DNA of 64,000 nucleotides from Candidatus Parvarchaeota archaeon (GCA_017608505.1 JAFCFT010000002.1:15299-79298), one strand, 5' to 3'; shown: positions 14,171 through 53,978, numbered from the stretch's first letter. Numbers and translations: made by a program. Notes: generated by a model from the letters alone, not told the origin.

Positions 14171-16761
14171 ATTACTTCACCACCGCGCGTTTTTGAAACG
14201 TCCACGCCATCTTCTCCGTACTTGAACTGAATTATTATGTTGTTGCTGTCTCTTACAGTCCCGTCATATTCTACTTTTATGTCTTGAAGCGCATTAATAA
14301 GTCTTCTTTGCAAGTAACCGCTTTTTGGGGTTCTCATTGACGTGTCCATAAGAGAGTCTCTTCCTGCTATGGCATGGAAAAAGAATTCATGAGGCGTAAG
14401 GCCTGCTTTGTAGCCGTGTCTTATGAAACCGTGAGGTCCAGCGCTTAAGTCGTCTTTGTTAAAGTGAGGAAGGGTCCTTCTATTATATCCTTTAACAATT
14501 CTTGAGCCTCTAAGAGATGTTTGGCCTACAAGGGCTGAAATCATTGTAAGATTAAGCAATTTTCCCCTTGCTCCGCTTTCTGCCATGATTGTTGTTCCAG
14601 AAGGTTTTGACATTTCTTCAACAATATGGCTTGACTTGTTGCGCGCCTTGTTTAATGTGGCAAGTATTTTAAATTCAAGGGTTTCTCTTAATGTTTTTCC
14701 AGGATATGCTTCCATTTTACCCATCATGTAATCTTTTATTAATTCTTCTACTTTATCTTCTGCTTTATTAAGAAGTCTTTTTATTTTCTTTACTGCTTCT
14801 TCAGGCAGGTCGCTGTCAGTCGGCGAGACTGTGATGCCTCTGTCCTGCAAGAAATTTATGAACAGCAATGTTGCTTTGTTTAAAAATTCTATTGCCTTGT
14901 GTTTTCCATATTGCTTAATTATTTTATGAAGCAAGAGCCCCACTCCTGAACCAACGCTGTTTTTGTCTATGATGCCTGCTTTTAACTCTCCATTTTTCAC
15001 GTAAACATAAGCATCATACTCGCAATTTGCTTTCTTGCACTCTTTGCATTTCTTGCATGCTCCGCTTTTGCATTCAAAATTAAAGTCTTTTGGCAAAAGC
15101 AGGCTGAATATTTCTTTTCCAGTAAATTCTTTTTTATCAGGAAGCTCTGCCACTATATTTGATCTTGCGAGCAAATCCATAGTTTCATTTCTTGACAATT
15201 TCGTGCTTTTTTGCGTCAGGATGTATGCTCCTGCAATGTGATCATTAATGCATCCTATTATTGGAAGCCCGTATCTTGGAGTTATTATGTTATTTGCAAC
15301 TTCAACAAGTATTTTTGCTTCTGCGCGCGCTTCCTCTGTTTGAGGTATGTGAAGATTCATTTCGTCGCCGTCAAAGTCTGCATTGTACGGCGGGCACACG
15401 CACAAATTAAGCCTAAATGTTTTTCCAGGAAGTATTTTTACTTTGTGAACCATCATGCTCATTCTGTGAAGGCTTGGCTGCCTGTTAAACAAGGCAGGGT
15501 CTCCATTTAGGAGATGACGTTCAACAATGTAACCCTCTTGAAGCTCTTCTAATATTGCATCTTTTGTTTCGTCAGATATCTTTTTCCTTTTGCCTTCAGG
15601 AGTTATAATATAGTTTGCTCCAGGATACTTTTTAGGGCCGTTTTTTATTAATTTTTTAAGCCATTTGATGTTCCACTCAGTCACGCGTTCTGGCATAGTT
15701 AAATCCATTGCCATTACAAGAGGGACGCCGACTTCATCAACAGCAATATTTGGATCAGGGCTTATCACTGTACGCGCGCTAAAGTCTACTCTTTTTCCTG
15801 CCAAGTGCTTTCTAAATCTTCCTTCTTTGCCTTTAATTCTTTCTGCAAGGGTTTTTAAAGGCCTTCCACTCCTGTGCCTTGCAGGAGGAAGCTGGGATAT
15901 GTTGTTTACAAAAAGTGTTGTAACATGATATTGGAGCAAGTCCCACAAGTCTTCTATTATTAATTCTGGCGCTCCTGCATTTAAGTTTTCATACAGCCTC
16001 TGATTAGCTCTAATTATGTCTCCTAACTTGTGCGTTAAGTCATCCTCGCTTCTTGTTCCTGACTCAAGCGTAATAGAAGGCCTGACTGTTATTGGAGGCA
16101 CTGGAAGCAATGTCAATACAAGCCATTCCGGTCTTCCTGCCAGAGGGTCGAATCCAAGAAGTATTAAGTCCTCATCAATTACTCTTTCAAGCCTCTCGCG
16201 CACGTCCACTGGCGTCAACTTGGTCTTTCCTTGATAGAAAAAGTAGGGTTTTTTGAGTATTATTTTTTCTTGTTCTGCACCGCAATGAGGGCATTTTTTA
16301 ATGTTTTTTATGTTTTTCTCTATATCTGCAGCAATTTTCCACGCTTCAAGCCCTCCTTTTTGAGCCTTAATTGTTTTTATTTTCTCTTCGTAAGCCTTTA
16401 ATTTTTCAGGCGTGGCAAGTATTCTCGAACATTTGTTGCATGTGCTTCTTAATATCATGTATATCCAGTGAACATACTTTATGTGTATGACTGGCCTTGC
16501 AAGTTCTATGTATCCAAAGTGTCCTGGGCACTCTTTTACTCGCTCTCCGCAAGTTCTGCATCTCATTCCAGGATCAATGACTCCCATTCTTAGATCCATA
16601 AGCCCGTTGTCAACAGGGAATCCATCAGCATCATATAAATCCGGGTTAGTTATTTTAACTACGCTCATTTTCTTTATCATTTTAGGGCTCAGTATCCTAA
16701 ATTCAATCTTGCCTATTTTTTCGCTTATTACGTCCATTTTGACATCAACTCTTTGGTTCAA
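14167..16761 (-). CDS. rpoA1: DNA-directed RNA polymerase subunit A' (Rpo1N)
   Basis: 864 aa with zinc-binding N-terminus 'CRTCGERVKECPGHFGYIELA' and the 'NADFDGDEMNLH' catalytic motif. Confidence 0.95.
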   Translation of the reverse strand: MNQRVDVKMDVISEKIGKIEFRILSPKMIKKMSVVKITNPDLYDADGFPVDNGLMDLRMGVIDPGMRCRTCGERVKECPGHFGYIELARPVIHIKYVHWIYMILRSTCNKCSRILATPEKLKAYEEKIKTIKAQKGGLEAWKIAADIEKNIKNIKKCPHCGAEQEKIILKKPYFFYQGKTKLTPVDVRERLERVIDEDLILLGFDPLAGRPEWLVLTLLPVPPITVRPSITLESGTRSEDDLTHKLGDIIRANQRLYENLNAGAPELIIEDLWDLLQYHVTTLFVNNISQLPPARHRSGRPLKTLAERIKGKEGRFRKHLAGKRVDFSARTVISPDPNIAVDEVGVPLVMAMDLTMPERVTEWNIKWLKKLIKNGPKKYPGANYIITPEGKRKKISDETKDAILEELQEGYIVERHLLNGDPALFNRQPSLHRMSMMVHKVKILPGKTFRLNLCVCPPYNADFDGDEMNLHIPQTEEARAEAKILVEVANNIITPRYGLPIIGCINDHIAGAYILTQKSTKLSRNETMDLLARSNIVAELPDKKEFTGKEIFSLLLPKDFNFECKSGACKKCKECKKANCEYDAYVYVKNGELKAGIIDKNSVGSGVGLLLHKIIKQYGKHKAIEFLNKATLLFINFLQDRGITVSPTDSDLPEEAVKKIKRLLNKAEDKVEELIKDYMMGKMEAYPGKTLRETLEFKILATLNKARNKSSHIVEEMSKPSGTTIMAESGARGKLLNLTMISALVGQTSLRGSRIVKGYNRRTLPHFNKDDLSAGPHGFIRHGYKAGLTPHEFFFHAIAGRDSLMDTSMRTPKSGYLQRRLINALQDIKVEYDGTVRDSNNIIIQFKYGEDGVDVSKTRGGEVM

Positions 16762-18547
16762 TATGCAGTTTTGGATATATGACGAGTGACTTTAACTCGT
16801 CCAACAGCAATTTGAAAGCATAACTCATTTCAATAAGAGTTATCTCGCTTCCTTCGCCGCATACAGGGCAAAGCCCTTTGTTTTTAAATTTGTTAAATAT
16901 TGCAATCATTCCGCACTTCTTGCATACAGGCATTACTGACTTGTCGCTGTCAAATCTTTCTTTTAAAAACAATGTAGCGCCGTGGCCTATAAGGCAGTCG
17001 CGCTCCATTTCTCCAAGTCTCAATCCTCCTTCTTTTGCCCTTCCTTCTGTAGGCTGTCTTGTAAGAAGTGCGAGAGGGCCTCTTGACCTTGACTGGATTT
17101 TTGAAGCAACCATGTACTTTAATTTCATGTAAAACATGTCTCCAATCATTATCCTGACTTTGTATTGCCTGCCTGTTCTTCCGTCATACATAGTTTCAGT
17201 CCCATTATCTTTAAAGCCTAATTTTAACAATTCTTTTCTTAAGTCCATTTCATTTTCATTGTCAAAAGTAGTGCCGTCTATGCATGTGCCTCTAAGCGCT
17301 GCCACTTTGCCTGCAAGACATTCTATTATCTGCGAGAACGTCATTCTTGGCGGCACGCTAAAAGGACTAAATATTATGTCAGGTATTATTCCTGAGGCAG
17401 TAAAGGGCATTGACTCTTGAGGCACTATCATGCCTATAACGCCTTTTTGCCCATACCTTGATGAGAATTTGTCTCCTATCTCAGGTATTCTTTGGTCTCT
17501 TATTTTGACTTTTACCATTTTGTTGCCTTCCTGAGATTCTGTTATCATGACAGTGTCAACAATTCCTTTTTCTTGCAATTTAATTGTTGTTGAAGTTTCG
17601 CGTCTTGCTTCAATTCCAACTTTAAATTCTTCAAGACCTGCAAGGAATCTTGGAGGGCTTGTTTTTCCGACTAAAACGTCTCCTGACTCAACTTCAGCTT
17701 CTGGATAAATTATGCCGTCATCTTCTAAATGAACATAAGCATCTTCAGTCCTATATCCTTTGACTTCTTTTTCAGGGATGCATATTAAATCTTTTATTCC
17801 TCCTGCATACTTTAGCTCCTCGCTTTTGTAAGGCCTAAAGTATGTGCTTCTAAACAAGCCTCTTTCAATGCTTGACTTGTTTATCACAATCGCGTCTTCA
17901 ATATTGTATCCGTCCCAAGTCATAATAGCAACAACTACGTTTGTGCCTATTGGATGAATATCATAATTCATTAAATCCCACATTATTGTGCCAACAAGCG
18001 GTTTTTGAACATAATGAAGTATATTGCTGTCAGTGTCATCTCTAATTAAATAATTGCTTGCGTAAATTCCAAGACCTTGCTTTAAAAGCTTGGCGCCATA
18101 AATTACCCTTGGCGCAGTATTGTGTTCTGCGTAAGGGACCATTGCTGCTTGGTTCCCAAAAATGCACAAAGGGCTTATTTCCAAGTGCGTGTGCGCTTCT
18201 GTAAGTTCGCTTTCATTCATTGCTATTTTTGCATCCTCTTCCTCGCTTGCATCCAAGTATTCTATGACTCCTTCTTTGACTAAGTCATTCCAAGATATCT
18301 CCCCATTTTTTAATTTCTTTATGTGCTCTTTTGTTAATTTTGGAATTCCTTTTTCAACAATTATTAACGGCCTTCTTGCCCTTCCTTTTTCAGTTGTAAT
18401 CTCAATGTTGTCAAGCTCTTCATCATACATTATATTCATTAAGTTTGTAATTTTTCCTTCCCTTCTTTCTTTTTTAATGTGTTTTATGAACCTTGCAGGA
18501 TTCTTAACAGTCCCTATGAATGTGCCATTAAAAAACACATCAGTCAT
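16745..18547 (-). CDS. rpoB1: DNA-directed RNA polymerase subunit B' (Rpo2C, C-terminal half of B)
   Basis: 600 aa with 'GQKGV', 'GEMERDCLIGHGA' and a C-terminal zinc ribbon 'CKKCG...CPVCG'. Confidence 0.9.
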   Translation of the reverse strand: MTDVFFNGTFIGTVKNPARFIKHIKKERREGKITNLMNIMYDEELDNIEITTEKGRARRPLIIVEKGIPKLTKEHIKKLKNGEISWNDLVKEGVIEYLDASEEEDAKIAMNESELTEAHTHLEISPLCIFGNQAAMVPYAEHNTAPRVIYGAKLLKQGLGIYASNYLIRDDTDSNILHYVQKPLVGTIMWDLMNYDIHPIGTNVVVAIMTWDGYNIEDAIVINKSSIERGLFRSTYFRPYKSEELKYAGGIKDLICIPEKEVKGYRTEDAYVHLEDDGIIYPEAEVESGDVLVGKTSPPRFLAGLEEFKVGIEARRETSTTIKLQEKGIVDTVMITESQEGNKMVKVKIRDQRIPEIGDKFSSRYGQKGVIGMIVPQESMPFTASGIIPDIIFSPFSVPPRMTFSQIIECLAGKVAALRGTCIDGTTFDNENEMDLRKELLKLGFKDNGTETMYDGRTGRQYKVRIMIGDMFYMKLKYMVASKIQSRSRGPLALLTRQPTEGRAKEGGLRLGEMERDCLIGHGATLFLKERFDSDKSVMPVCKKCGMIAIFNKFKNKGLCPVCGEGSEITLIEMSYAFKLLLDELKSLVIYPKLHIEPKS

Positions 18548-20058
18548 TTTTTATCAACCCCTATTTGTTCTAGTCCGCTATTTTTAAGCGCTTCTACAAT
18601 CTTTTCATTTTCTTCTTTAGGCACATTAGTGCTTATTTCGCAAGTTATCCCTAAATACTTTCTAAGACCTACTGGAGGTCCTTCTGGAGTTTCGTAAGCG
18701 CACAATTTTCCCCAATGCGTAGGATGTATGTCGCGCGCTTCAAAGTTTTCTCTTGATGATGTTAAACTTGAGACAACTCTTTTTAAGTGGCTTACAGTGT
18801 CAACAAAATTGCATCTTGATAAGTGCTGGCTTACTCCGTGCCTTCCGCCGACCCATTCTCCTGTAGCCAAATTGCTTTTAATTCTTGATGACAATAATTG
18901 GCTTCTTGTTATTGCCTGAAGACTTGGAAGCTTTCCTCTTTTTACAAGCCTTTCAAAATTATATTTCATGTCACCAACAAGTATTCTAAATGAAAATCTG
19001 AATAAGCTTTCCATTAAATCTCCGCACAGCCTCAGCCTTTTATTCATGTAATGGTCTTTGTCATCCTCTTTTATTATATTGTATGACAACTGAAGCAGTT
19101 TCCTAATGCATTTTGCCAGATAATAAGCTTTCAGCATTCTTGAAGACTCGTCGTGCCCTATGTGAGGGAACAAGAACTTGTCAATCATTGTCAATGCTTT
19201 GTTAATCATCTTCTCTTCTGTCTGCGTTGCGCCTAATTTCTTTCCAAGCGCTATCAATGCCTGCTTTTGGTTTTTTATTTCGGCAACTTTGTACAAATTA
19301 ATGTATATGTCGCTCATCATTCTTTCATTTGGCTGTATTGCAGAAACTATTTCTTTGTCATTGTCAAGACCTAGCGCCTTAAGCAAGAGCATTGCAGGCG
19401 CTTTATTGACTCTTGTGAACGTGACATTTATTAATCCTGCCCTGCTTTTTTGTATCAAGTGGGGAATCCTTAATTGATCATCTTCTGAAAATATTTTTAC
19501 AATATAAGGGTAAGGTCCTATTTTTTGCTCTTCTACAAAAATCCTGTTTGGCGCCAAGTCCTCTATTATTACAACAACCCTTTCTGTTCCATTTATTATG
19601 AAGTAGCCTCCTGGGTCCATAGGGTCTTCTCCATTATTAATTAGCTCTTCCCTGCTTAAGCCCTTTAAGTAGCACGGATCTGACTTTACCATTATCGGCA
19701 TATTTCCTATATGTATTACTTTTTTCTCGCCTTCTACGCCGTCTTTCTTGTAAAACATTTCAAGCATTATTGGGGCTTCATACGTTAAATCTCTAAGTCT
19801 TGCTTCTATTGGCAATATTGGCCTTTTTGTGCCGTCTGCTTCTCTTATAAGCGGCTTTTCAACCCACACCTTTCCAAATACTATCTCAAAATCTGAAACA
19901 TTTGGAGGAAGGATGTCTGGCGTTAACTTTCCAACTTCATCAACCACGACCTGCATTCTTTCATTTATAAATTTATTAAAAGACTCTATATTAAATTCTA
20001 CAATACTCTTCTCCCTAAAGTACGCTCTTAACAAATCTTTATGATTAATCAACCACAA
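18544..20058 (-). CDS. rpoB2: DNA-directed RNA polymerase subunit B'' (Rpo2N, N-terminal half of B)
   Basis: 504 aa, 'PIEARLRDLTYEAPI'. The ORF-track start is TTG at 20058; a start at the next TTG (20052) with the upstream 'GGAGGTG' Shine-Dalgarno-like run is equally possible. Confidence 0.9.
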   Translation of the reverse strand: MWLINHKDLLRAYFREKSIVEFNIESFNKFINERMQVVVDEVGKLTPDILPPNVSDFEIVFGKVWVEKPLIREADGTKRPILPIEARLRDLTYEAPIMLEMFYKKDGVEGEKKVIHIGNMPIMVKSDPCYLKGLSREELINNGEDPMDPGGYFIINGTERVVVIIEDLAPNRIFVEEQKIGPYPYIVKIFSEDDQLRIPHLIQKSRAGLINVTFTRVNKAPAMLLLKALGLDNDKEIVSAIQPNERMMSDIYINLYKVAEIKNQKQALIALGKKLGATQTEEKMINKALTMIDKFLFPHIGHDESSRMLKAYYLAKCIRKLLQLSYNIIKEDDKDHYMNKRLRLCGDLMESLFRFSFRILVGDMKYNFERLVKRGKLPSLQAITRSQLLSSRIKSNLATGEWVGGRHGVSQHLSRCNFVDTVSHLKRVVSSLTSSRENFEARDIHPTHWGKLCAYETPEGPPVGLRKYLGITCEISTNVPKEENEKIVEALKNSGLEQIGVDKK

Positions 20059-20160
20059 CCACCTCCAAGGAGGGGGACTTTCCCTCCCCCTCCTCTAGGC
20101 TACTTCTCCCCCTCCCTCGCATTACTATGTAGGTTTTATGATTAATCAACCACAACCACC
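20038..20160. repeat. 26-bp perfect direct repeat (20038-20063 and 20135-20160) flanking a 71-bp GC-rich hairpin-containing insert between rpoH and rpoB''
   Basis: 'TTTATGATTAATCAACCACAACCACC' occurs twice. One copy encodes the RpoH C-terminus and stop, the other the RpoB'' N-terminus. The insert contains 'GGAGGGGGACTTTCCCTCCCCCTCC'. Confidence 0.7.
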
Positions 20161-23026: not shown

Positions 23027-23231
23027 TGAGCCCGGAGGGATTTCCAATCCAAAAATTCTTCTCTGGCTTTTGAACCCCCGACACCCTGGTATCCTCCAGG
23101 GAGAGCCTGGTAAAAGCTTCACCTCCGTACCATCAAGCTGTTGCTTGATCCTGCAATCAAAAAGACTGCAGGCGCTTCGTAATCAAAGCGGGTTGGTGGT
23201 CAGGTGCTCTACCAAGCTGAGCTACGGGCCC
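23027..23231 (-). tRNA. Intron-containing tRNA gene (~205 nt primary transcript; putative introns near the anticodon loop and at T-loop 59/60); anticodon not resolved
   Basis: Minus-strand 5' part 'GGGCCCG TA GCTC AGCTTGGTA GAGC A CCTGA' is a perfect acceptor/D-arm/anticodon-stem start. The 3' end 'CGGGCTC A' pairs with it. 'A CCAGG GTGTC GGGGG TTCAAA' then about 28 nt then 'T CCCTC' completes the anticodon 3' stem, variable loop and T-arm. Confidence 0.6.
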
Positions 23232-40604: not shown

Positions 40605-41168
40605 TTATTCGTCTTGGCACTCTTTCACGCTCTTCCACACATGGCTTATGCTCATGCCAGAGACTCTTGCCAGGTCCCTAATGCTCACTCCTTGGTCACT
40701 ACACGCTAGATAAATGCACACGAGCGCCTTGGTCTTGTTCGTCTTGTTCACTAATTTTTTCTCAACTTCTTTTATCTTCTTTATTGCTTTTGACGCCTCG
40801 CTCTCCGCAAGCCCTAATTCGTAGCACAGCCTCGTGATGTAGAAGCTGGTGTCAACTTGTTTTCTGGGAAGGTCCACGTTCTGCTTGATAAAAGACTTGC
40901 ACCTAAGCAGGCGCTTCTTCTCAACGCCAGAAGCCTTAATGACTTCCTTTAATAGCAAAGGGTAGTTCAGGAGTTCGCTTACGACCAGCAGGCAGGCGTT
41001 CACAAGCTCTTTCCTGCTCCTGCCTTGTGTTAATTGTTTAAGCATCAACTGCTTGTACAACTTGATAGTGTTCTGGAATAGTCTTTCAGGCAGTCCTAAC
41101 TCATTGCACGTGCTGCGCAATTCCTCATAGGCAGGCATCAAGGACTTAATGAATTGCGAATACTCCAC
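40605..41168 (-). CDS. TFB-like protein, cyclin-fold core only (second paralog; GTG start)
   Basis: It aligns along the whole TFB core ('GRSRKELVNACLLVVSELLNYPLLLKEVIKASGVEKKRLLRCKSFI', 'RLCYELGLAESEASKAIKKIKE', 'GVSIRDLARVSGMSISHVWKSVKE'). 'CCTTTATATATTA' TATA-like box lies about 30 nt upstream. There is no room for a Zn-ribbon. Confidence 0.7.
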   Translation of the reverse strand: MEYSQFIKSLMPAYEELRSTCNELGLPERLFQNTIKLYKQLMLKQLTQGRSRKELVNACLLVVSELLNYPLLLKEVIKASGVEKKRLLRCKSFIKQNVDLPRKQVDTSFYITRLCYELGLAESEASKAIKKIKEVEKKLVNKTNKTKALVCIYLACSDQGVSIRDLARVSGMSISHVWKSVKECQDE

Positions 41169-41221
41169 AAATAATAACGAGAAATACTAATATATAAAGG
41201 TAACACAAATATTTAGTGTTT

Positions 41222-42361
41222 TCAATCCATCACAGCCTTTATCCTCTTCGCTATCTTTGGCGCTATAAATTTTAGTGCTTTCTTGCCGTACTTTAGTGCT
41301 TTTTGTGCTTTCACGTTTCCTGGCTTTATTGTTTCTGGTTCTGTCCTGCTCTCAATTAAATATTTATGACCTTCTATCTTAACTTTGCCATAAAGCGACA
41401 GTATCAATTTTGTAGGCTCTGCTGGTGACTTTAATTCAAGGTTTATGGTTGCCTTCTCGCCTGGCCACACTACATAATCTTTTAGTAATTCTTCTTCGTT
41501 ATTAATTGTGGCGTTAACATATTCAATTGTGCTTTTCAATTCTTTTATCTTGAACTCGTTATTAATTGCTTGTATTATTATCTCTGCATCGAATGTCTTG
41601 CCTTTATTAACTATGTAGGCGTCACCCTTCACAAGCCCCCTATTCAAGTACGACTCCAATAGCACTTCATCATTGTATGTCTTTAGTATTATTGCCTTTG
41701 TGGCGTCGTCTATCTTTTTTGTCCTCTTATCAATTTTCTTTAGCTTCTTCTCTAAGCTACTGACGCCATCTCCTACAGCCTCTTTTATAACTTCATTTAT
41801 GTTTGTAATGCTTATGCCTGTATCCGCTTTTGAAGCCTTAACACTTCTTAATTTCTCGTCCACTGGAAGTATGCTTTCCTCTGCCAAGCGCTTTATATCA
41901 TACATGGCGTGCTCCAAGTAAGGCTTTCCTATCTTGCTAGCTCCGTAAACGTTTAACAAATTAGGCTCAGCCACTGCTTTTAATGCAAACCTTTCTTCGT
42001 TACCGTTTTCATCCTGAATAATAGAGAAGTACCTACGCTCATTATTAGGGATAGAATCAACCTCTAAGTATATTAAGTCCAAACCATATTCAGCCTTAAT
42101 ACCAGAATGAAACAACTCCAACGCTTTTTCTGGAGCCAATTCGTAAAACACAACATCAAAAGACTTAACGCAATAATTAGCAAGCATAAACTCAAGAGAC
42201 TCATTAAGGACAAAATCAACAGCTTTATTAATATTTTTATATTCTTCATATTTTTTTCTTAATAGATCAGCATCTTCTTTTTTTAATAATCCTGAGGGTT
42301 TTTTATGTACAAATTTATATTTTGCTATTCCATCATCATAAATATTATGAATTTCAACCAT
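41222..42361 (-). CDS. hypothetical protein
   Basis: 379 aa. No motif recognised. Confidence 0.35.
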   Translation of the reverse strand: MVEIHNIYDDGIAKYKFVHKKPSGLLKKEDADLLRKKYEEYKNINKAVDFVLNESLEFMLANYCVKSFDVVFYELAPEKALELFHSGIKAEYGLDLIYLEVDSIPNNERRYFSIIQDENGNEERFALKAVAEPNLLNVYGASKIGKPYLEHAMYDIKRLAEESILPVDEKLRSVKASKADTGISITNINEVIKEAVGDGVSSLEKKLKKIDKRTKKIDDATKAIILKTYNDEVLLESYLNRGLVKGDAYIVNKGKTFDAEIIIQAINNEFKIKELKSTIEYVNATINNEEELLKDYVVWPGEKATINLELKSPAEPTKLILSLYGKVKIEGHKYLIESRTEPETIKPGNVKAQKALKYGKKALKFIAPKIAKRIKAVMD

Positions 42362-45967: not shown

Positions 45968-46007
45968 TGACCAAAAATCATTTTATTTTTTTGTCATACT
46001 AATTCTA

Positions 46008-46085
46008 AGGCTTTGGTATTGGTAAAGCACACCCCCGCTCGCTTCGCTCGCTGCCCCCTCAAGGGGGCTTTGTGCTCGCTAGCGC
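46008..46085. terminator. Complex GC-rich stem-loop between convergent genes
   Basis: 'AAAGCACACCCCCGCTCGC...GCCCCCTCAAGGGGGCTTTGTGCTCGC' has nested inverted repeats (GCCCCCT/AGGGGGC; AAAGCACA/TGTGCTTT). Confidence 0.35.
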
Positions 46086-46093
46086 TCGCCACT

Positions 46094-46330
46094 TTATGAA
46101 ATGTTTGAAATGACAAGTTCAATAATTCCTACTATAATGAGTAAAGGACCAACAAAGTCAAAAGAGTTTTTTATATTACTTAGTGGTTCTTTGCCTGACT
46201 CTGGAACTATTTTTTCTAATTGACTAAAGAATAAACCAGTGACCATATTGTCAACAGCATCTTGTATGAAAAGGGTTGTGATGCCTATGACTATAGTTAT
46301 TATGCCTGCTGTAGTTAAGACTAGTCGCAT
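46094..46330 (-). CDS. small membrane protein
   Basis: 78 aa with two hydrophobic helices. Confidence 0.3.
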   Translation of the reverse strand: MRLVLTTAGIITIVIGITTLFIQDAVDNMVTGLFFSQLEKIVPESGKEPLSNIKNSFDFVGPLLIIVGIIELVISNIS

Positions 46331-50614: not shown

Positions 50615-51784
50615 TTAGCGCCTCCTGAGTATTGCCTGGGCTTTTTGTTGCAACAGCTTCTTGACTTCAGGGTCCTTGATCAACTCGTTCAATAAGTAGT
50701 CTTTGTTGCGCTCTTCCTCGTCAATCTGCATTAATGTCTTGCGGTCAAGTATTAACCCGCAGTTATCGCAGTACTTGCTGGTTGGTTCATTGCTGTTCTT
50801 GCAGCGGGGGCAGGTCATCACTTTTAATGATTCATTGTCATCCTCTTCTCCAATCTGCACGCCATTAACTTTCAACAAGGCTTTGTCAACATCCCTGCCT
50901 GACAAGTGGATGTAAACGCTTGCCATCTTCGAACCCTGCACCCAGCCGAAGTACTCCTTCATCTGCGCCTCAGTCAAGTGATTACACAAGTGAGTAGCCC
51001 TAGCATGCCTAAAAGAATGCGGATTCACTCGCTTACTAATATTAGCTCTCCTAGCAATCCTAATAAGTTTAACCCTAATCATGCTGTAACTTAATTGCTT
51101 AGGCTCGTAACAAAGATTAACCCATAAAGGAGCATCAGGGTCATTCTTCAGTGGATGCTCATTCAACCAACGAGCCAAATAAGAAACGCTGGCTATAATC
51201 CTAACCCTTCGCTGACCAGTCTTCCCGCTAACTAATAACTTGGCCCCGTACTTATCAAACGCTACATGCTTCAATTTTAAGTTGCCAATCTCTCCAATCC
51301 TGCAACCACTCTCATACAAACAACTAACTAGCGCCTTATCCCTACTATTCTTAGCAGCTTCAATCATTTGCTTGACCTCTTCTTGTGTTAGTATCTCCTC
51401 TGGCATTCGCTTAGCATTCTTATAATTAAACTTAATCCACTTAACACAATCAGGCACCTCCTCACTCTCATGTAACCAAGTCACGAACTTCCTCAAAATA
51501 CGCTTATAAGTAATCTTAGTCCAACCAGTATAATCACGAGACTCAATCTCACCAACCAACTTAATATAATCCTCTTTTACTAACTCCTTGAAGTCACGAT
51601 CAACCATCTCACCCCACAACTTCAAGACTTGCAAGTAACGATCAATACGCGCCTTGCTCAAGCCATTAGCCTTCAAGTAATCAACAAACTTAACAAAGTA
51701 ACCCTTGTTAACTTCCAGGATGTCCGCTGCCATCAAGCGATTAAAACTGCCTTCGACTCGTTTATCATAATCATGGATGCCCAC
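50615..51784 (-). CDS. int: Tyrosine recombinase/integrase with a C-terminal zinc ribbon
   Basis: 'NPHSFRHARATHL', downstream 'MASVYIHL' (catalytic Tyr), 'CPRCKN...CDNCG'. It is adjacent to tRNA-Asp. Confidence 0.85.
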   Translation of the reverse strand: MGIHDYDKRVEGSFNRLMAADILEVNKGYFVKFVDYLKANGLSKARIDRYLQVLKLWGEMVDRDFKELVKEDYIKLVGEIESRDYTGWTKITYKRILRKFVTWLHESEEVPDCVKWIKFNYKNAKRMPEEILTQEEVKQMIEAAKNSRDKALVSCLYESGCRIGEIGNLKLKHVAFDKYGAKLLVSGKTGQRRVRIIASVSYLARWLNEHPLKNDPDAPLWVNLCYEPKQLSYSMIRVKLIRIARRANISKRVNPHSFRHARATHLCNHLTEAQMKEYFGWVQGSKMASVYIHLSGRDVDKALLKVNGVQIGEEDDNESLKVMTCPRCKNSNEPTSKYCDNCGLILDRKTLMQIDEEERNKDYLLNELIKDPEVKKLLQQKAQAILRRR

Positions 51785-51866: not shown

Positions 51867-51878
51867 ACGCCCGGGCCG
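51867..51878. repeat. att-like core, proximal copy (3' end of tRNA-Asp)
   Basis: Identical to 26386-26397. Confidence 0.5.
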
Positions 51879-51942
51879 GGATTTGAACCCGGGTCCTCGG
51901 ATCGACAGTCCGAGATCCTAGGCCAGACTAGACTACCCGGGC
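51868..51942 (-). tRNA. tRNA-Asp (GUC), intron-less
   Basis: Minus strand 'GCCCGGG TA GTCT AGTCTGGCCTA GGAT C TCGGA CTGTCGA TCCGA GGAC CCGGG TTCAAAT CCCGG CCCGGGC G'. The 7-bp acceptor, anticodon loop CUGUCGA and T-loop TTCAAAT are all present. Confidence 0.85.
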
Positions 51943-52027
51943 ATTTTGGTTTCATTATATGCTTAGGATTTTTAAACTTTATCTTGCTGATGGAAAAACA
52001 AAAGTTTTTAAAACAAGTTTTTAAAAT

Positions 52028-52993
52028 ATGAAACTTATGAAATCAATGTACAATGTTTTAGGATCAAAAGAGCTTGGCGAATACACTAGTGAAAATTTAA
52101 TTCAGGATTTAAAAAGCACAGATTTATGGGGCGAGTACCAAACCAATCAAGCTGTGCCGACCCCTGCTAAAATAATGAGTTTTTCAAGAAGTAAATTATT
52201 TAAAGCATCGCCAATAATGAGCTTGTTTACTATAGCATTCTACGAAAGCAAGGGTGTGGCAATGAGTTATAAAAGCAACCTTGCTGTTAAATTAATACAT
52301 GGACGCTTAAGAAAATGCTACATTCCTTACGACACAATATTTATTCCAGGCAATAACTTTGCAGGCAAACACGTTTTAGAACACGAAAAAATACATCATA
52401 TACATAAGAATTTAATACAATCATTCTTGTCAAGTCAGGATGACGACTTAGTAAAGAATACTTTGGATTACTTATTAACACACAAAATTAAAGAGACTGA
52501 ATTAAAGAACTGTGTGAGCGCAACAAAACTTGCATTTCCAGAAATAGAATCATTGCTCGATGCAAAAGATAACATTGAAACTATCAGAGAGTATTCAAAT
52601 TATTTATCAGGACTTGTAATGAGCAAAACGCCATTTTGGGCAAAAGAGTGCTTTGCAGAACACTACGCGAGTTCTAAATTTATCAGCAACACAAACAAAA
52701 TATATATTGCTGCAATGTTATTATCTGAAGCTTGCATGCTAGTAAATGTATTAAATACTTTATTAAATGATGCCAACATGCATAGCATGTTAAACTTTTG
52801 CAAAATAATGTACATTACTGGATTAACATTGTACCTTGCCAAATCCTTTAGCCCTTATATGACTGGGAAGAGTCAATGGAGCAAATTTACTAAAGGGCTA
52901 AACAGCCATGAAAAATTTTTAATATCAGCATTCCCGCCTAAGAAAAAGAAAGATTTAGACCAACAGTTAAAAACTCTTAATGAATATTTCTAA
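52028..52993 (+). CDS. hypothetical protein
   Basis: 321 aa. No motif recognised. Confidence 0.35.
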   Translation: MKLMKSMYNVLGSKELGEYTSENLIQDLKSTDLWGEYQTNQAVPTPAKIMSFSRSKLFKASPIMSLFTIAFYESKGVAMSYKSNLAVKLIHGRLRKCYIPYDTIFIPGNNFAGKHVLEHEKIHHIHKNLIQSFLSSQDDDLVKNTLDYLLTHKIKETELKNCVSATKLAFPEIESLLDAKDNIETIREYSNYLSGLVMSKTPFWAKECFAEHYASSKFISNTNKIYIAAMLLSEACMLVNVLNTLLNDANMHSMLNFCKIMYITGLTLYLAKSFSPYMTGKSQWSKFTKGLNSHEKFLISAFPPKKKKDLDQQLKTLNEYF

Positions 52994-52995
52994 AA

Positions 52996-53220
52996 CTATT
53001 CACGAGCATTTCTTTTCCAAAAACACCACCTAATGTAATTAAAAATAAGCAGGAATACAAACAACAAAATCCATGTATGGGCGCTCTCCCACGGGACTAG
53101 CCCTAATATTTTAATTGTAAACACCGCAACCCAGTATAAAACAAACAAAACAATAGTCTCAATAAAGCTTACTACGAGTGGTCCTAAGTACTTTTTCCTT
53201 AAATTTCTGCGCGCTTTCAT
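52996..53220 (-). CDS. small membrane protein
   Basis: 74 aa with two TM helices. Confidence 0.3.
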   Translation of the reverse strand: MKARRNLRKKYLGPLVVSFIETIVLFVLYWVAVFTIKILGLVPWESAHTWILLFVFLLIFNYIRWCFWKRNARE

Positions 53221-53231
53221 ATTAAAATATC

Positions 53232-53453
53232 TCCCGCCGCCCGGATTTTCACCCTAAGACCTTACCTCCCTTAAGAGGGGGTGGGTAGGCCCTAGGGAGG
53301 GGGAAGCTTCCCCCTCTCTGGGGCTTGAACCGGGAACCTCACGGTTGCTGCTCAACTGCTGTTGGTCCAATACTAATTTGTATTGAACTACAGCCGTGCG
53401 TTGTAGGTAAATTATTCAAATAATTTACTCTCTACCAGTTGAGCTACGGCGGG
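53232..53453 (-). tRNA. tRNA-Tyr (GUA) gene with three putative introns (~24/25, 37/38 and 59/60), ~222 nt
   Basis: Proposed exons: 'CCCGCCG TA GCTC AACTGGTA GAG' | 'C G CACGG CTGTAG' | 'A CCGTG AGGTT CCCGG TTCAAG' | 'T CCGGG CGGCGGG A'. They assemble into a 73-nt cloverleaf with perfect D, anticodon, T and acceptor stems. Inserted segments have strong hairpins (GTAAATTATT/AATAATTTAC; GGGGGAAGCTTCCCCC). Confidence 0.6.
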
Positions 53454-53495
53454 ACGAAATTTAAAAAATTCTTTTAACATTTAAATGTTTTGGAG

Positions 53496-53978
53496 TCAAA
53501 GAAAATCTTTGATGCGTGAATAAAAACTCGAGCCCTTTTTTTCGATAGTTAATCTTTCTTCTTCAGTCATTGTGTATTCTCTAACTATTAAAAAACTTTC
53601 TTTGTATATTGTGTCTATCTCTATGCAAAGCAGGCCGTAATCATAGTTGTCGCACATTTCTTCTGCAAGAGCATATTTAACAGCATTATTTAGACTGTCT
53701 ATGTATTCATTTATTAGACAGTAATCTTCTTCGTCTGCTTTTCTTCTTGCTTCTGCAAAAGTCTGCATAACTGCATCGTATAGCTCTATGAATGCTCTTT
53801 TGTTGTCTATAGCATTTACTATGCCAACAGGATCCATATATTTCTCCAAATCAATTTCTTCGTAGTCAATGTTGTATTTTTCTGAAATCAACTTTTTTAG
53901 AATATTTTCATAATAATTCAAACTTTCTGGAAACCATATGTCTACTATTTCTGTAAATTCAGAATACATGTCATTCAA
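53496..53978 (-). CDS. hypothetical acidic protein
   Basis: 160 aa, D/E/Y-rich. Confidence 0.35.
   Translation of the reverse strand: MNDMYSEFTEIVDIWFPESLNYYENILKKLISEKYNIDYEEIDLEKYMDPVGIVNAIDNKRAFIELYDAVMQTFAEARRKADEEDYCLINEYIDSLNNAVKYALAEEMCDNYDYGLLCIEIDTIYKESFLIVREYTMTEEERLTIEKKGSSFYSRIKDFL

Follow-up and report, generated by a model that had tools for sequence, protein, structure and literature searches.

A tRNA-Tyr(GUA) gene of a DPANN archaeon, very probably split by three bulge-helix-bulge introns, one of them at T-loop position 59/60

A tRNA-Tyr(GUA) gene in the 64-kb stretch of DNA analysed here (the window) can be read with high confidence as a functional gene of a DPANN archaeon that is split by three endonuclease-type introns lying in bulge-helix-bulge (BHB) motifs, one of which interrupts the T-loop between positions 59 and 60. 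Splicing itself is predicted from the sequence.

The tRNA-Tyr locus and its host

The gene comprises four exons and three introns within 222 nt of the minus strand (Table 1). Read on that strand, the pre-tRNA begins CCCGCCG-UA-GCUC-AACUGGUA-GAG and ends UCCGGG-CGGCGGG-A. Removal of three segments, which in pre-tRNA numbering are 25-53 (29 nt), 67-108 (42 nt) and 131-208 (78 nt), leaves a 73-nt product, CCCGCCGTAGCTCAACTGGTAGAGCGCACGGCTGTAGACCGTGAGGTTCCCGGTTCAAGTCCGGGCGGCGGGA, that ARAGORN calls as tRNA-Tyr(gta) with four of four stems perfect. The proposal made in an earlier note on this DNA, that a 73-nt tRNA-Tyr(GUA) with perfect stems is obtained by removing three segments, is thus borne out, and the coordinates, isotype, intron number and rough lengths given there are all correct (the third intron is 78 nt long, where about 77 had been given). 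The sites 37/38 and 59/60 stand as proposed, and the first site, placed by the note in the D-stem/position-26 region, is refined to 24/25. Both hairpins that the note had described in the inserted segments, one of 10 AT base pairs (GTAAATTATT/AATAATTTAC) and one formed by GGGGGAAGCTTCCCCC, were found. The spliced tRNA has a C1-G72 pair and the discriminator A73, and CCA is not encoded; C1-G72 together with A73 are marks of archaeal and eukaryal tRNA-Tyr. Its G+C content is 67%, against about 36% for the window average.

Table 1. Positions of the two three-intron tRNA genes and of their parts and flanking signals in the window
Feature	Coordinates	Strand	Basis
tRNA-Tyr(GUA) gene (5' end 53453, 3' end 53232)	53232..53453	-	ARAGORN call on spliced product
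Exon 1, positions 1-24: acceptor 5' strand, D-stem 5' strand, D-loop, G22-G24	53430..53453	-	
Intron 1, 29 nt, site 24/25 (3' strand of D-stem), relaxed HBh'	53401..53429	-	BHB scan, shuffles, orthologues
Exon 2, positions 25-37: C25, G26, anticodon stem 5' strand, C32-G37 including anticodon GUA	53388..53400	-	
Intron 2, 42 nt, canonical site 37/38, strict hBHBh'	53346..53387	-	BHB scan, shuffles, orthologues
Exon 3, positions 38-59: anticodon stem 3' strand, variable loop, T-stem 5' strand, T-loop 54-59	53324..53345	-	
Intron 3, 78 nt, T-loop site 59/60, strict hBHBh'	53246..53323	-	BHB scan, shuffles, orthologues
Exon 4, positions 60-73: U60, T-stem 3' strand, acceptor 3' strand, discriminator A73	53232..53245	-	
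TTTAAA box, -32..-27, likely archaeal TATA element (function inferred)	53480..53485	-	position conserved upstream of orthologues
T-run, 5-8 nt past discriminator, likely archaeal termination signal (inferred)	53224..53227	-	sequence only
tRNA-Lys(UUU) gene, 205 nt, three introns	23027..23231	-	anticodon-arm enumeration, junction check, ARAGORN
tRNA-Lys intron at 30/31, 83 nt, central helix CACC/GGUG	23200-23118	-	
tRNA-Lys intron at 37/38, 20 nt, central helix CUUU/GAGG, minimal 4-bp h'	23110-23091	-	
tRNA-Lys intron in T-loop, 59/60, 28 nt, central helix UUCA/UGGA; exact site ambiguous (A-run)	23068-23041	-	

A TTTAAA or TTTATA box is found at equal distance upstream of all tRNA-Tyr orthologues examined (9/9), as well as of the tRNA-Lys and tRNA-Asp genes of the window. 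No ORF of 80 aa or more covers the tRNA-Tyr locus. ARAGORN does not detect the unspliced locus, either by default or with the -i option; its intron search calls no rival, simpler exon structure and misses the gene altogether. Similarly, Rfam searches of the unspliced locus at the gathering threshold and at E<=10 return only chance microRNA-like matches to the GC hairpin.

The window derives from a metagenomic contig, and the three-intron structure could in principle be an artefact of assembly or a chimera. However, the identical tRNA-Tyr sequence is present on an independent, separately recorded 7-kb JGI metagenome contig (L001), so local assembly error is ruled out. In addition, a homologous three-intron gene occurs in an unrelated NCBI assembly and two-intron versions occur in two further assemblies. 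An assembly artefact is thereby effectively refuted and retains next to no probability.

The window encodes RNA polymerase subunits B'', B', A', A'' and H, EF-2 and aEF-1alpha, along with Kae1, CDP-archaeol synthase and the ribosomal proteins S7, S10 and S12. This gene set identifies the host as an archaeon. EF-2 and the GTPase have their best named matches in 'Candidatus Nanoarchaeia archaeon', 'Nanoarchaeota archaeon' and 'Woesearchaeota' (59-73% identity), and by best match only we would call the host a DPANN, Nanoarchaeota-like archaeon. The GC-rich tRNAs in an AT-rich genome suggest that it is thermophilic. Two genes that overlap at their ends (16745-20058) encode RNA polymerase subunit B in separate parts, B'' (504 aa) and B' (600 aa), an arrangement that fits a non-TACK archaeal host.

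Splice motifs at the three junctions and their conservation

BHB motifs were scanned for in a strict 3-4-3 form, with a central helix of 4 bp, a bulge of 3 nt on each strand and a cut after the second bulge nucleotide. Folding of the junctions gives a 3-4-3 BHB at all three. The bare motif is common, with 24 weak candidates within the 222 nt; long flanking helices and a product that folds as a tRNA are combined only in the three proposed introns, and the strict scan returns exactly these three as the candidates with the longest flanking helices. In intron 1, G19-U20-A21-G22 pairs with CUAC, the bulges are AG|A and AA|C, no outer helix is present (h = 0), and h' is the AT hairpin of 9-10 bp. 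The central helix of intron 2 involves C32-U35 (CUGU/GCAG) and is flanked by the bulges AG|U and CA|A, with the anticodon stem as h (5 bp) and an h' of 5 bp. In intron 3, U54-U55-C56-A57 pairs with UGAA between the bulges AG|C and AA|U; here, h is the T-stem (5 bp) and h' is CCC/GGG, which continues beyond one A-A mismatch.

To estimate how often such motifs arise by chance, each intron was shuffled 20,000 times with the exons kept, and a strict 3-4-3 BHB was sought at the exact splice sites. The motif appeared at the true sites in 71/20,000 shuffles of intron 1 (0.36%), 21/20,000 of intron 2 (0.11%) and 10/20,000 of intron 3 (0.05%). Chance is excluded because the motifs are rare in intron shuffles and the architecture is kept with compensatory changes in a second species, described below.

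Other kinds of interrupted gene were considered and rejected. Self-splicing group I or II introns have a ribozyme core of more than 200 nt, against the 29, 42 and 78 nt found here, and Rfam gave no group I or II match above noise. A split or permuted tRNA gene does not agree with four exons that are collinear within 222 nt behind one promoter box.

Intron 3 is strongly structured, with 60% G+C, and carries a GGGGGAAGCUUCCCCC hairpin and an extra domain of 41 nt that is missing from the related locus L003. The possibility of a nested intron in these 41 nt was dismissed, as the internal BHB candidates have no outer helix and weak central helices, and the difference was treated as an indel. The high G+C content in a genome of about 36% G+C, together with the strong structure, could indicate that the 78-nt intron is a functional small RNA, for instance a C/D-box guide like that in the euryarchaeal tRNA-Trp intron. 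However, C (RUGAUGA) and D (CUGA) boxes are absent from this intron, as they are from all six introns of tRNA-Tyr and tRNA-Lys, Rfam finds nothing in it beyond the chance microRNA-like hairpin matches, and 41 of the 78 nt are missing in L003, so that most of the intron is dispensable. We regard a small-RNA function as very unlikely. The 41-nt domain (53266-53306) is also similar to the spacer that separates rpoH from rpoB'' (20059-20141), which is GC-rich and hairpin-forming; 26/32 positions are identical, and the score is reached by 0/500 shuffles. The two are in opposite orientation and may be copies of a small repeat or may have converged as structured, C-rich sequence.

Loci of relatives were fetched through the synteny of an Era-like GTPase, OapB, OapC and a protein of about 470 aa beside tRNA-Tyr. 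Ten further orthologous tRNA-Tyr genes were recovered from syntenic loci, making 11 with the window. Once spliced, the orthologues are called tRNA-Tyr by ARAGORN in all nine cases run. Across the 11 spliced genes, 231/231 cloverleaf cells are paired and four pairs show double-sided changes; the covariation score is reached by 0/500 shuffles and by no slid register.

The most informative relative is L003 (NCBI GCA_030615175.1), whose EF-2 is 85% identical and whose five neighbouring proteins are about 70% identical to those of the window. Its 180-nt tRNA-Tyr gene has introns at the same three sites, of 27, 42 and 37 nt, and its acceptor pair 5:68 is U:A versus C:G in the window. The central helix of its intron 1 is GCAG/CUGC versus GUAG/CUAC, a paired change in which the D-loop base U20 and its intron partner have both been replaced (U20:A to C:G), and the intron-1 hairpin differs in sequence and retains pairing over 8 bp. 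The 37-nt intron 3 of L003 retains the first 24 and the last 13 nt and is without the 41-nt GC-rich domain; its h' is shifted by one nucleotide, which makes it a relaxed form. Support from covariation is thin for intron 3, as it comes from two sequences (the window and L003) and a single central-helix change, U:A to U:G. The site and motif of intron 1 are conserved in L003, L011 (central helix GTAG/CTAT) and L015. The four h' hairpins of intron 1 are fully different in sequence and all of them pair, and between clades the intron-1 sequences are unalignable save for the bulge nucleotides and the 3' strand of the central helix. Thus, the exons and BHB helices of tRNA-Tyr are kept, with compensatory changes, across related genomes.

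These data also bear on the alternative of a tRNA-Tyr pseudogene in decay, its three segments being acquired insertions, with a working tRNA-Tyr elsewhere in the genome. The unspliced locus is indeed invisible to ARAGORN and Rfam, and the search for tRNAs covered the 64-kb window only. Decay is nevertheless hard to reconcile with a perfect cloverleaf that fits every exon base, with three insertions that all lie in precise BHB motifs rare in shuffles, and with the same architecture, including compensatory changes, in a species in which the proteins encoded beside the gene share only about 70% identity with those of the window. Moreover, tRNA-Tyr lies at the syntenic locus in ten relatives, and the promoter box of the window's gene is kept. 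A pseudogene is therefore highly improbable, and the functional, three-intron gene is the reading retained here.

The number of introns varies among the orthologues. The canonical 37/38 intron is present in all 11 and is ancestral to the group; it is the only intron in L004, L006, L007/8, L009/10, L013, L033 and L034. Introns at 24/25 and 37/38 only are found in L011 and L015/L016. The 59/60 intron is confined to the clade of the window and L003, which are sisters in a rough neighbour-joining tree of five concatenated neighbouring proteins. The genomes that carry intron 1 do not form a single clade in this tree, and the patchy distribution of the 24/25 intron reflects either several losses or recurrent gain at a hot spot. 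A search for closer relatives with the fast-evolving 477-aa neighbour protein found only L003 above 46% identity, the extra loci L033 and L034 being of the one-intron type. When metagenome contigs were scanned with AACGCNCGGCTGTAGNNNAATAC, only the L011 and L015 contigs were recovered again, plus one chance match. The sole match in a scan of genome contigs with CCCGCCGTAGCTCANNNGGTAGAG, L002, was discarded as a chance match inside a GC-rich bacterial ORF.

Several further observations concern the surroundings of these genes. In L003 (8171-8438) and L009 (4268-4464), tRNA-Asp follows tRNA-Tyr after 4-10 nt, and the two probably form one transcript. In the window, tRNA-Tyr and tRNA-Asp are 1.3 kb apart (51867-53453), an unannotated ORF of 321 aa lies between them on the opposite strand (52028-52993), and tRNA-Asp has its own TTTAAA box. 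An ORF of 160 aa (53496-53978) is inserted between the tRNA-Tyr and the 477-aa gene of the window. The tRNA-Thr(GGU) gene contains a canonical intron in L011 (11473-11569), L015 (11604-11726) and L007 (13016-13129), and the intron is absent in L004, L006 and L009. ARAGORN -i mislabels several of the intron-bearing tRNA-Thr(GGU) genes (as Asn, His or Val) and also the tRNA-Tyr orthologues of the relatives.

A second three-intron gene and the origin of the introns

The second example of a three-intron gene in the window is tRNA-Lys(UUU), which was found through a scan for GC-rich intergenic islands followed by enumeration of the possible rebuilds of an anticodon arm. The stretch starts with GGGCCCG-UA-GCUC and ends with CGGGCUC-A, and each of the three junctions has a 4-bp central helix (Table 1). 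ARAGORN calls the spliced 74 nt as tRNA-Lys(ttt); the unspliced gene is missed by ARAGORN and Rfam. The spliced tRNA-Lys is near-identical to the intron-less tRNA-Lys of L009, and the gene of L007 has one intron; these orthologues, with zero and one intron, confirm the exon parse. Three-intron genes thus make up two of the three tRNA genes within the window, and the genome tolerates such genes, as tRNA-Lys also carries three introns. ARAGORN -i additionally proposed a tRNA-Leu with a 1120-nt intron at 40882-42094; since this candidate runs across annotated ORFs, it was dismissed as a false positive.

The remaining tRNA gene of the window, the intron-less tRNA-Asp, is the one that serves as the attachment site of what is probably an integrated genomic island, about 25.5 kb long (26386-51878). 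A single exact copy of the 12 nt that end tRNA-Asp (CGGCCCGGGCGT, 51878-51867) lies in the same orientation at 26397-26386, where 0.00 matches would be expected by chance, and a gene for a tyrosine-recombinase integrase (50615-51784) abuts tRNA-Asp. Besides a type I R-M system (hsdR, hsdS and hsdM, 26.7-33.6 kb), the island encodes a second methylase/specificity fusion and two TFIIB-like proteins, together with a PD-(D/E)XK nuclease and a STAND/AAA ATPase. Its G+C content falls to 28-34%. Inside it, between convergent genes, lies a strongly self-complementary intergenic patch (46004-46105) of 72% G+C, which has no Rfam match at E<=1 and could act as a terminator or encode a small RNA.

The T-loop introns of tRNA-Tyr and tRNA-Lys occupy the same site and both start with N-CCAGAGA (CCATAGA in L003). 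This common start hints at a shared origin, the heptamer being too short for proof. The non-canonical introns could have spread as copies between tRNA genes, or could have been retained for breaking the T-arm/3' end sequence that integrases use for attachment; both ideas are found in the literature (Fujishima 2010; Randau & Soll 2008; summarised in PMC4090602). The shared site and start of the two T-loop introns would fit such an account, as would the relatives' orthologues that do not have these introns. The same goes for the integrase beside the 3' end of the only intron-less tRNA gene in the window and for the single exact repeat of that gene's last 12 nt 25.5 kb away. Conversely, the heptamer in common is short, no other similarity was found among the introns or to viral contigs, the sample amounts to three tRNA genes, and the 24/25 introns cannot be aligned between clades. 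In scans of viral contigs, the intron-3 junction had 0 matches and the intron-3 hairpin had 12, which are confined to a palindrome of about 20 nt, occur in about the number expected by chance and give no evidence of viral origin. On balance, transposition or attachment-site disruption is an unlikely account; it concerns the origin and selective value of the introns and is compatible with the three-intron, functional tRNA-Tyr gene favoured above.

More broadly, it is a tentative possibility that the clade of the window and GCA_030615175.1 is an independent hot spot of tRNA-intron proliferation on a par with the Thermoproteales, with recent stepwise gain, copying of the T-loop intron and a non-crenarchaeal EndA variant. 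If true, the clade would be a second natural system for studying the gain of BHB introns. In any case, the lineage provides a series of tRNA-Tyr genes with 1, 2 and 3 introns (11 loci) and of tRNA-Lys genes with 0, 1 and 3 (three loci), which is material for testing models of gain, loss and transposition outside the Thermoproteales.

Predicted splicing and relation to known systems

By analogy with established archaeal tRNA biology, the TTTAAA box at about -30 would drive transcription of the tRNA-Tyr gene, which would end at the downstream T-run. EndA would then cut at six bulges to leave 2',3'-cyclic phosphate and 5'-OH ends, RtcB would join the four exons, with the introns probably being circularised, and RNase P, RNase Z and the CCA-adding enzyme would mature the ends of the tRNA. 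The central helices would borrow nucleotides of the mature tRNA, namely G19-G22 in intron 1, C32-U35 in intron 2 and U54-A57 in intron 3. As these nucleotides are sequestered, the D-stem, the anticodon loop and the T-loop/D-loop elbow (G19-C56) should be unable to form before splicing. The three motifs do not overlap, and thus no obligatory order of intron removal is predicted for tRNA-Tyr. In tRNA-Lys, removal may be ordered because a possible outer helix of the 30/31 intron uses C32-U35, which the canonical motif needs.

The motifs also predict the specificity of the splicing endonuclease. In PMC3239211 and PMC5829648, strict alpha4 and alpha'2 EndA are described as requiring hBHBh', and (alpha-beta)2, epsilon2 and possibly L3-bearing alpha4 enzymes as accepting HBh' or hBH. 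The earlier note held that multi-intron tRNAs of this kind need an endonuclease with relaxed BHB specificity. That view holds for intron 1, which has no outer helix, so that the host enzyme would have to accept relaxed HBh' motifs. It does not hold for introns 2 and 3, which according to this literature could be cleaved even by a strict enzyme because their motifs are strict hBHBh'. As modelled, then, the need for relaxed activity in the tRNA-Tyr of the window rests on intron 1, and a similar need would apply to intron 3 of L003 and to the non-canonical introns of tRNA-Lys. Pfam scans of the 67 ORFs of the window found neither EndA (tRNA_int_endo) nor RtcB. Judging from other DPANN lineages, an alpha4 EndA with an L3 insertion is a reasonable guess for the host, and a crenarchaeal (alpha-beta)2 enzyme with an L1/CSL loop is unlikely by lineage. 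The relaxed motif of intron 1 would thus predict an EndA of broad specificity in this clade, which bears on the co-evolution of EndA and tRNA disruption.

Archaeal tRNA genes carrying as many as three BHB introns are well known, above all from the Thermoproteales, where the occurrence of like introns at matching positions in different tRNAs has been read as evidence of intron transposition (PMC8450103; PMC4033280; PMC4090602). Position 59/60 is a documented major insertion site. The present genes agree with those of Pyrobaculum, Thermofilum and Caldivirga (Sugahara 2007/2008; Fujishima 2010; as cited in PMC4090602, PMC4033280 and PMC8450103) in having no more than three BHB introns per tRNA gene, in using non-canonical sites in the D-arm, anticodon stem and T-loop, in mixing strict hBHBh' with relaxed HBh'/hBH motifs, in varying in intron presence between related species, and in having similar introns at the same site of different tRNAs. 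However, the host here is DPANN/Nanoarchaeota-like, with about 36% G+C and a split rpoB, and is not a crenarchaeon. The earlier note saw multi-intron tRNAs as a hallmark of a few archaeal lineages; the lineage found here is not one of the classical Thermoproteales.

Within DPANN, the ARMAN-2 archaeon ('Ca. Micrarchaeum') also has tRNA introns at 59/60. Its tRNA-Cys has an intron at this site that is cut in vitro by an epsilon2 EndA, and its tRNA-Pro has two T-loop introns, at 53/54 and 59/60 (Fujishima 2011, PMC3239211). Unlike the present host, ARMAN-2 is acidophilic and belongs to a different DPANN phylum, and three-intron genes and the sites 24/25 and 30/31 are features of the present genes that the available part of PMC3239211 does not describe. 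In Nanoarchaeum equitans, which represents a related DPANN group, tRNA pieces are likewise joined through the splicing endonuclease at BHB-like motifs. There, the halves are separate genes joined in trans, whereas the present gene has four collinear exons in one transcription unit.

Kaneta 2018 (PMC5829648) associated the DPANN alpha4 EndA with an L3 loop with more disruption of tRNA genes, took incomplete DPANN tRNA sets to point to hidden disrupted genes and urged manual curation. The tRNA-Tyr and tRNA-Lys described here are such hidden disrupted genes: both are invisible to ARAGORN and to the tRNA model of Rfam, so the genome would be scored as missing two essential tRNAs, which is the same annotation gap as the problem of missing tRNAs in DPANN raised by Kaneta et al. 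2018 (PMC5829648). That survey covered Pacearchaeota, Woesearchaeota, Nanohaloarchaea and Mancarchaeum, and the present clade and its EndA lie outside it. Thus, the mechanism is not new, as multi-intron tRNAs and the 59/60 site are already described in Thermoproteales and in ARMAN-2. The present genes add three-intron tRNA genes from a different, apparently intron-rich DPANN clade, outside the analyses of PMC3239211 and PMC5829648.
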